Source of the DNA: a virus | Taxonomy: Duplodnaviria; Heunggongvirae; Uroviricota; Caudoviricetes | DNA length: 14,469 nt | IMG/VR virus record: IMGVR_UViG_2563366931_000002 | Strand: one strand, 5' to 3' | Shown here: in pieces, positions 12,047 through 13,241 of the stretch | How positions within the stretch are numbered: the first letter of the stretch is position 1 | Layout: each line of letters begins with the position of its first letter | Translations under genes and position numbers: made by a program | The notes under the pieces: generated by a model | Databases searched by the model: none | Told to the model about the DNA's origin: nothing | What the model saw: only the letters and a program-made list of their open reading frames with translations

Positions 12047-12062
12047 GGAAGGTGCGAATAAG
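12047..12062. repeat. IS5 terminal inverted repeat (transposase-distal end)
   Basis: GGAAGGTGCGAATAAG read directly; matches the 13226..13241 reverse complement at 15 of 16 positions. Confidence 0.9.
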
Positions 12063-12192
12063 CGGGGAAATTCTTCTCGGCTGACTCAGTCATTTCATTT
12101 CTTCATGTTTGAGCCGATTTTTTCTCCCGTAAATGCCTTGAATCAGCCTATTTAGACCGTTTCTTCGCCATTTAAGGCGTTATCCCCAGTTT

Positions 12193-13173
12193 TTAGTGAG
12201 ATCTCTCCCACTGACGTATCATTTGGTCCGCCCGAAACAGGTTGGCCAGCGTGAATAACATCGCCAGTTGGTTATCGTTTTTCAGCAACCCCTTGTATCT
12301 GGCTTTCACGAAGCCGAACTGTCGCTTGATGATGCGAAATGGGTGCTCCACCTTGGCCCGGATGCTGGCTTTCATGGATTCGATGTTGATGGCCGTTTTG
12401 TTCTTGCGTGGATGCTGTTTCAAGGTTCTTACCTTGCCGGGGCGCTCGGCGATCAGCCAGTCCACATCCACCTCGGCCAGCTCCTCGCGCTGTGGCGCCC
12501 CTTGGTAGCCGGCATCGGCTGAGACAAATTGCTCCTCTCCATGCAGCAGATTACCCAGCTGATTGAGGTCATGCTCGTTGGCCGCGGTGGTGACCAGGCT
12601 GTGGGTCAGGCCACTCTTGGCATCGACACCAATGTGGGCCTTCATGCCAAAGTGCCACTGATTGCCTTTCTTGGTCTGATGCATCTCCGGATCGCGTTGC
12701 TGCTCTTTGTTCTTGGTCGAGCTGGGTGCCTCAATGATGGTGGCATCGACCAAGGTGCCTTGAGTCATCATGACGCCTGCTTCGGCCAGCCAGCGATTGA
12801 TGGTCTTGAACAATTGGCGGGCCAGTTGATGCTGCTCCAGCAGGTGGCGGAAATTCATGATGGTGGTGCGGTCAGGCAAGGCGCTATCCAGGGATAACCG
12901 GGCAAACAGACGCATGGAGGCGATTTCGTACAGAGCATCTTCCATCGCGCCATCGCTCAGGTTGTACCAATGCTGCATGCAGTGAATGCGTAGCATGGTT
13001 TCCAGCGGATAAGGTCGCCGGCCATTACCAGCCTTGGGGTAAAACGGCTCGATGACTTCCACCATGTTTTGCCATGGCAGAATCTGCTCCATGCGGGACA
13101 AGAAAATCTCTTTTCTGGTCTGACGGCGCTTACTGCTGAATTCACTGTCGGCGAAGGTAAGTTGATGACTCAT
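12193..13173 (-). CDS. insH: IS5-family transposase InsH (326 aa from the [12 protein letters not shown] start; the ORF is open to an upstream in-frame ATG at 13209, which would give 338 aa)
   Basis: The translation ([35 protein letters not shown] ... DDE-type transposase) is the IS5 transposase as I recognise it. It lies within the IS5 inverted repeats, and an AGGG Shine-Dalgarno-like sequence precedes the 13173 start. Confidence 0.93.
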
Positions 13174-13225
13174 GATGAACCCTGTTCCATGGCTCCAGAT
13201 GACAAACATGATCTCATATCAGGGA

Positions 13226-13241
13226 CTTGTTCGCACCTTCC
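13226..13241. repeat. IS5 terminal inverted repeat (transposase-proximal end)
   Basis: CTTGTTCGCACCTTCC read directly; reverse complement GGAAGGTGCGAACAAG. Confidence 0.9.

Follow-up and report, generated by a model that had tools for sequence, protein, structure and literature searches.

An intact IS5 with a TTAT target duplication in the AT-rich spacer between a lambda-like tail module and appY

Introduction

IS5 is among the best-characterised bacterial insertion sequences, and strain-private copies of it are a routine finding in the AT-rich DNA of prophages. The locus described here raises the question as to whether one such copy, lying upstream of the activator gene appY, is simply another of these or whether it changes the expression of its neighbour. 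By the window we mean the whole stretch of DNA that was analysed, 14,469 nucleotides of the Caudoviricetes viral record IMGVR_UViG_2563366931_000002; the insertion had been picked out in an earlier note made from the sequence alone.

Results

Genomic context of the insertion

The part of the window upstream of the insertion encodes a lambda-like tail module, for which the RefSeq annotation of identical sequence gives a tape-measure protein, a C40-family peptidase, the gpJ tail tip protein (1165 aa) and a tail fibre. These are followed by a tail-fibre-domain protein with a Peptidase_S74 chaperone domain, a 97-aa ORF, the spacer that carries the insertion, and appY; in other genomes ompT and envY come after appY. 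The features of this region are as follows.

11865-11975, plus strand: tail-fibre-assembly pseudogene remnant (tfaX-like), from RefSeq annotation mapped by 100% identity
12047-13241, minus strand: IS5, with IRR toward the tail module and IRL toward appY
13246-13719, plus strand: appY upstream spacer, 474 bp, 25% GC, holding the promoter island
13720-14469, plus strand: appY, intact, encoding a 249-aa AraC-family activator (Pfam HTH_18 and HTH_AraC; annotated as AppY, WP_000386784.1, where another genome has identical sequence)

Without IS5, 675 bp separate the 97-aa ORF from appY, and since the tfaX-like remnant lies to the left of the insertion the truly non-coding spacer is about 545 bp. From the end of IS5 to the appY ATG there are 478 bp, and to the left of the element 71 bp of the AT-rich tract remain, at 25% GC; the appY gene itself is 32% GC. 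The earlier note had described an AT-rich spacer of roughly 670 bp between the tail module and appY, with the element about 480 bp from the gene, and both the description and the figures agree with what was measured.

The element is a complete IS5

The element is 1195 bp long with a GC content of 53%. Its 16-bp terminal repeats agree at 15/16 positions and conform to the imperfect IS5 terminal repeat GGAAGGTGCGAA(T/C)AAG. Within it there is a single long minus-strand ORF (12193-13209; 338 aa) with no internal stops, whose product contains the Pfam domains DDE_Tnp_1 (E 5e-35, covering 5-200 of the 200 profile positions) and DUF772 (E 4e-21).

12047-12062: IRR, 16-bp terminal inverted repeat, GGAAGGTGCGAATAAG
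13226-13241: IRL, 16-bp terminal inverted repeat, GGAAGGTGCGAACAAG on the minus strand
12193-13173, minus strand: ins5A transposase CDS, 326 aa, 981 nt, as annotated by RefSeq in identical copies
up to the ATG at 13207-13209, minus strand: upstream extension of the ins5A ORF, 338 aa
13208-13236, minus strand: weak ins5A promoter, with a -35 element (GTGCGA, 13231-13236) inside IRL, a 17-bp spacer and a -10 element (GATCAT, 13208-13213)
12047-12223, minus strand: IB region, 177 bp at the IS5 3' end, with A-tracts and a predicted IHF site, on the far side from appY
about 12134-12148: predicted IHF site in IB, TGATTCAAGGCATTT read on the ins5A strand
12242-12508, 12268-12522 and 12529-12897, plus strand: ORFs reading toward appY, at the described place of the divergent ins5CB

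The promoter elements of ins5A were defined from the literature (PMC11894529) and then located in the window, and IB was placed where its published definition puts it, in the last 177 bp of the 3' end (PMC2753651). We take the true ins5A coding sequence to be that of 326 aa, since the ATG that opens the 338-aa ORF overlaps with the -10 element as published. The promoter end of ins5A faces appY and its transcription runs away from appY, so that the transposase, being on the minus strand, reads in the direction that had been claimed. An ins5CB operon has been described as divergent within IS5, and the internal promoters of IS5, those of ins5A and ins5CB, are reported to be nearly silent (PMC11677980); outward ins5CB transcription toward appY is therefore unlikely to matter.

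A megablast search of 5426 complete Escherichia coli genomes finds many copies that match the element at 100% over all 1195 nt and are annotated in RefSeq as 'IS5-like element IS5 family transposase', that of strain EC6868 among them. The element is 99.67% identical to the K-12-type copy, with four nucleotide differences (at 12353, 12377, 12874 and 13188) that give two changes in the 326-aa protein (S/Y 278 and K/R 286, in the numbering of the 338-aa ORF). In length, inverted repeats, DDE transposase, 4-bp duplication and near-identity, the defining features that were tested, the element is thus IS5, and the proposal of an intact IS5 with both inverted repeats and a full transposase ORF at 12047-13241 holds with its coordinates exact. 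Judged by its structure the element should be competent to move again, and its continued mobility is plausible.

Target duplication, empty site and age of the insertion

IS5 is flanked by two copies of TTAT.

12043-12046: left copy of the target-site duplication, TTAT
13242-13245: right copy of the target-site duplication, TTAT

The probability that two random 4-mers in the spacer are identical by chance is about 0.01. The empty site was reconstructed by joining 12046 to 13246 (11747-12046 with 13246-13545), and it matches many complete genomes at 100% over 600 nt, with a single TTAT; the query is covered to at least 80% in 827 genomes. Longer comparisons of the window minus IS5 and one TTAT give 100.000% identity over 5219 bp to CP043406 and 100% identity over 4524 bp to strain 118UI. 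Because an empty site with a single TTAT exists in other genomes, the duplication is genuine and not a coincidence, as the earlier note had supposed of the identical flanks; the reconstruction that it had proposed as a check thus finds exact counterparts.

At least 12 complete genomes match the left 12,046 bp of the window at 100.0%, and 58 genomes cover at least 80% of this query; those left-flank matches that could be cross-checked are also among the empty-site matches. Against genomes carrying the empty site there are zero differences over the 12,046 bp to the left and the 1,224 bp to the right, so that the 13.27 kb of the window other than IS5 are the same as in several complete genomes, the element being the only difference. 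The occupied left and right junctions are found in 0 of the 5426 complete E. coli genomes, and the exact 32-nt right junction was not found in the metagenome or viral contig collections. Likewise, none of 15 genomic contexts of the exact AppY or of the 97-aa tail-side protein has the insertion, the spacer being uninterrupted at the site. Two junction matches with at least 80% coverage proved to be different IS5 insertions that the search tool had joined as neighbours. Since the genomes with the empty site are 100.0% identical and the occupied junction is absent from the collections searched, we conclude that the insertion is recent and strain-private, and the relatively recent origin suggested for it earlier stands. 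The junction k-mer of the IS5-bearing allele is TTGTTCGCACCTTCCTTATGCTTTTGCGCCCC.

A non-canonical target sequence

A strong YTAR motif was seen by Lee et al. among 220 new IS5 insertions (PMC5009759). TTAT fits this motif at only three of the four positions, as does its reverse complement ATAA. To place this we drew on 120 loci with an IS5 right end in GTDB representative genomes, which gave 29 full-length copies with matching 4-bp flanks, four of them appY-locus copies. The flanks conform to YTAR in 26 of the 29, the exceptions being CTAT, ATAA and CTTG. We note that the ATAA of this sample is the reverse complement of TTAT. The TTAT target is uncommon and has precedent, and YTAR is a preference of IS5 and not a family-defining requirement.

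The empty spacer contains 15 canonical YTAR sites, yet TTAT was used. Nearest-neighbour duplex stability, used as a crude and here weakly informative proxy for SIDD, ranks the site at the 83rd percentile of the window, in a slight rise of GC with an AT well on either side. A hairpin immediately to the right of the insertion (CTTTTG-CGCCC-CAAAAG, 13247-13263) was considered as a terminator or structural target and set aside, having a z-score of 0.26 and no terminator call.

IS5 at the appY locus in other genomes

The locus was surveyed with two chimeric queries, one per orientation, each consisting of one IS5 end and the first 600 nt of appY. Nine other complete genomes among the 5426 carry IS5 at the appY locus; positions are those of the window.

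13495-13498, strain 11202: TTAA; upstream of appY, at -225, inside the island; same orientation as in the window
13861-13864, OY754834: CTAA; inside appY; same orientation as in the window
14041-14044, EC6868 and S1-CAM-04-C: TTAA; inside appY; opposite orientation
14110-14113, THB42-F3, -F4, -F5 and THN257 (near-clonal): CTAA; inside appY; opposite orientation
10715-10718 and 13861-13864, strain 3359: TTAA and CTAA, mismatched; a 3.1-kb deletion with loss of the spacer and the appY 5' end; same orientation

IS5 is thus inside appY in seven genomes (sites 13861, 14041 and 14110) and upstream in one, with the appY 5' end deleted in the remaining one. As IS5 more often destroys appY and no upstream site is used twice, the survey gives no support for a selected activating allele. 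The strain 11202 copy, in the same orientation as that in the window and inside the island, could hint at selection on the region. The first three IS5 copies seen near appY all lay as in the window, but the mirrored query gave six genomes with the opposite orientation, and the apparent orientation bias is an artefact of query design. Two contigs that end in the appY spacer were also considered as signs of other IS insertions; their ends are native sequence and are therefore assembly breaks.

Position of IS5 relative to the appY promoter island

The region upstream of appY is an H-NS-silenced, H-NS-bound 'promoter island' (PMC7054387, PMC4469952). A 423-bp fragment of it, used in reporter and H-NS band-shift assays, binds H-NS in vitro (PMC7054387), and its primers map exactly to 13405-13827. 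Counted from the ATG, the reported sense start sites for appY are -113/-114, -81/-85 and -25 and the antisense ones -145, -214 and -225 (PMC7054387, PMC4469952). In the window the former correspond to approximately 13606, 13635-13639 and 13695, and the latter to approximately 13575, 13506 and 13495, pointing toward IRL. The end of IS5 at 13241 is 164 bp outside the 423-bp fragment and about 365 bp upstream of the farthest mapped sense start (-114). Neither of two motif searches gave an excess: the H-NS high-affinity motif TCGATAAATT, allowing up to two mismatches, has 11 matches where 11.3 are expected, and a promoter consensus scan has four (one of them 10/12) where shuffling predicts 4.0. 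In literature sought for a direct link between IS5 and appY, both terms co-occur only in reference lists or tables.

Discussion

Consequences of the insertion for appY and for IS5

We think it likely that this is a recent and near-neutral transposition of IS5 into AT-rich prophage DNA, its neutrality toward appY being judged from position and orientation. A standard IS5 transposed very recently into the non-canonical TTAT target, its DDE transposase making a 4-bp staggered cut and repair duplicating those 4 bp. The landing site is the distal edge of an AT-rich, H-NS-type spacer between a lambda-like prophage tail module and appY, at the DLP12/appY locus, where the insertion interrupts no gene and does not break up the silenced AT-rich DNA that covers the appY promoters. 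In this orientation the element should be unable to give either activation through the IB bend and IHF or read-through from an ins5A fusion promoter, and with IS5 outside the mapped promoter island the consequence for appY would be none or negligible.

An effect on appY might nonetheless arise as at bgl, where H-NS repression is abolished when IS1 or IS5 inserts, whichever way round, up to about 200 bp upstream of the promoter (PMC11043490). The 1.2-kb, 53% GC element would part the island from an H-NS nucleation or bridging site lying upstream, weaken silencing and raise appY in either orientation. That appY is strongly H-NS-repressed and its upstream region an H-NS-bound island (PMC7054387, PMC4469952) speaks for this, as does the location of IS5 inside the AT-rich tract, given the 71 bp at 25% GC on its left and provided that an H-NS site lies at or left of 12046. 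We consider it unlikely, however, since the insertion splits off only some 70-100 bp of AT-rich DNA and leaves 478 bp at 25% GC contiguous with the 32% GC appY gene, the nearest relevant start site is about 365 bp away as against roughly 70-150 bp in bgl, and the element is outside a fragment that still binds H-NS in vitro. In addition, no other genome among the 5426 has an insertion at or near the 12047 site, and the search for high-affinity H-NS motifs is not above chance. The influence could also run in the reverse direction, with the antisense promoters of the island at -145, -214 and -225 transcribing into IRL and ins5A to make this copy an unusually active, condition-dependent IS5 donor; read-through from the tail operon may feed ins5CB. 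IS5 transposition in K-12 requires transcription that enters through IRL from a promoter outside the element, and ins5A mRNA is detectable from the nmpC copy alone (PMC11677980). Antisense transcripts from the three island starts have been detected on a plasmid, and antisense RNA has also been measured in the chromosome (PMC4469952); the starts aim at IRL from 254-334 bp, and there is no terminator-like site between on that strand. Against this, H-NS silences the island in the chromosome, and transcription from it is often abortive (PMC4469952). The idea is drawn from positions and orientations, and it too seems improbable.

Both influences might operate together, the antisense transcription of the island making a stress- or supercoiling-responsive IS5 donor while the GC-rich insert relaxes in part the hold of H-NS on appY, and thereby on the targets of AppY in acid resistance, hydrogenase-1 and RpoS stabilisation. 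We regard this combination as very unlikely; if true, it would make a natural xenogeneic-silencing 'promoter island' the external driver of a transposase. Least likely of all, and to our minds highly improbable, is that the upstream IS5 lowers appY expression, for example through a displaced distal positive element or changed supercoiling. Sawers in 2005 reportedly described fnr expression as constrained by an upstream IS5 insertion in some K-12 strains, which by its title would be a precedent. We know of no positive appY element upstream of -315, and appY is already nearly silent under standard conditions. Sense and antisense promoters of the island do respond oppositely to changes in supercoiling (PMC4469952), but the sole regulator site mapped by experiment, that of ArcA, is shown inside the 423-bp fragment, which lies downstream of the insertion (PMC7054387).

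Significance

Leaving these alternatives for the near-neutral reading that we prefer, the insertion is an ordinary mobile-element polymorphism of a kind already known; it matters little alone, and the locus is of modest value. For annotation, it is enough to enter it as an IS5 polymorphism with an intact appY; it is also a documented case of non-YTAR target use by IS5. The IS5-bearing and empty alleles, with zero other differences over 13.27 kb, form a clean natural pair suited to testing the limits of distance and orientation within which IS5 acts on H-NS silencing of a horizontally acquired regulator. The locus is also suited to testing whether antisense transcription from a promoter island drives a transposase.

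Comparison with known IS5 elements and insertions

The element shares with the IS5 of K-12 (the insH copies) its length of 1195 bp, the 16-bp imperfect inverted repeats, the architecture of a 326-aa DDE transposase and the 4-bp duplication, and differs from it by four nucleotides, two amino acids and a TTAT target in place of YTAR.

The IS5 copies that activate glpFK, fucAO and flhDC lie with IB, at the 3' end, nearer to the promoter being activated and with the ins5A promoter on the far side (PMC2753651, PMC11894529). Activation of glpFK needs IB, with its A-tract bend and IHF site, promoter-proximal and helically phased, at -126.5 (PMC2753651); the flhDC insertions are at -99.5 and -169.5 (PMC2753651, PMC11894529), and at fucAO a fusion promoter transcribes through ins5A into the operon (PMC11894529). 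Activating insertions of this type lie roughly 70-170 bp from the start site (PMC2753651). The insertion in the window resembles these in that the regulatory DNA receiving IS5 is AT-rich and melts easily, and the gene downstream is poorly expressed. In contrast to them, its orientation is reversed, with IRL and the ins5A promoter facing appY and IB (12047-12223) distal, and even the farthest mapped start is about 365 bp away. The IB end is thus not the proximal one as in activating IS5 insertions, the 365 bp to the start site and 478 bp to the ATG lie beyond the range of about 100-170 bp, and independent insertions in the same upstream zone do not recur among the 5426 complete genomes. The earlier note had likened this copy to activating IS5 insertions, while flagging the effect on appY as inference; reversed orientation, distance and lack of recurrence all go against the analogy, and an effect of the bgl type alone is conceivable.

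The likeness to bgl is that the target gene is H-NS-silenced, and because the bgl mechanism is independent of orientation, the orientation of IS5 in the window does not exclude an effect of that type. The bgl insertions, however, are between or next to two H-NS sites that flank the promoter (PMC11043490), whereas here IS5 lies beyond the characterised promoter island, at the outer limit of the AT-rich tract. The nmpC copy, the main donor in K-12 and located in DLP12, provides a further parallel, being in the same prophage-type region with a host promoter region that faces IRL and is co-oriented with ins5A. There, a gene with a defined, active promoter is interrupted, whereas the copy upstream of appY is faced by weak, H-NS-silenced candidate antisense promoters.

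IS5 insertions in and upstream of appY

The 675 bp AT-rich spacer on the 5' side of appY (window 11846-12046 and 13246-13719, IS5 removed) contains 15 canonical sites matching the IS5 target consensus YTAR, several of which lie within its most AT-rich and least stable stretch (13560-13610). Despite these, the IS5 in the window occupies a non-canonical TTAT, which sits on a small GC-richer bump adjoining the sequence GCGCCCC. Comparison with fetched genome loci (L-numbers) identifies IS5 at other positions in and around this region:

Window 13861-13864, 14041-14044 and 14110-14113; both orientations; IS5 insertion sites in appY (L003, L015, L016)
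Window equivalent 13495-13498; orientation as in the window; IS5 at 3936-5130 of NZ_CP071521, strain 11202 (L002)
Window equivalents 10715-10718 and 13861-13864; orientation as in the window; IS5 at 1606-2800 of NZ_CP103739, strain 3359 (L014)
Window equivalent about 10008-10011; IS5 at 758-1955 of KE699933.1, within the 791-aa tail-fibre gene (L139)

The appY coding sequence is broken by IS5 in seven complete genomes, at three distinct sites that are all canonical YTAR, and loss of appY through IS5 is therefore more common than insertion upstream of it. In the K-12-like strain 11202, IS5 is flanked by a TTAA target duplication 225 bp 5' of appY, within the published H-NS-silenced promoter island, where it coincides with the antisense start reported at -225. 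An effect on appY expression is more likely for this allele than for that of the window.

IS5 and the prophage tail region

The tail region of the KE699933.1 prophage is identical to that of the window and its appY-side site is empty, and IS5 lies in the tail-fibre gene; this prophage region has therefore been struck repeatedly by IS5 in related strains. In the window, the 791-aa tail-fibre gene contains a direct repeat (84% identity, 189 bp offset; BLAST self-hits of 8711-8960 to 8900-9149), which suggests tandem 63-aa repeats. Immediately to the left of the window IS5, a tail-fibre-assembly pseudogene remnant overlaps a match to Rfam IS009 (RF02111; 11843-11941, plus strand) that covers the entire model in just 99 nt, scoring 53.8 bits (E = 1e-10), below the gathering score of 117; the segment is probably a degraded relative of the candidate sRNA locus IS009.

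In strain 3359, IS5 takes the place of ~3.1 kb made up of the final part of the 93-aa ORF (window 10546-10827), the gene for the tail-fibre-domain protein, the 97-aa ORF, the entire spacer preceding appY and the initial 141 nt of appY itself. Its 4 bp flanks differ, with TTAA at the left and CTAA at the right, the latter being the site occupied in OY754834. This arrangement resembles the outcome of an adjacent deletion mediated by IS5, or else of two IS5 copies recombining with one another. Near-identical IS5 elements are also present in many non-Escherichia genomes (L017-L136, GTDB representatives carrying the exact 31-nt right (IRR) end of IS5, mostly Aeromonas, Edwardsiella and Atlantibacter), and about 25 of the 54 distinct full-length copies with both flanks available have mismatched 4 bp flanks, especially in Aeromonas genomes with multiple copies, which fits with recombination or deletions often taking place between IS5 copies.
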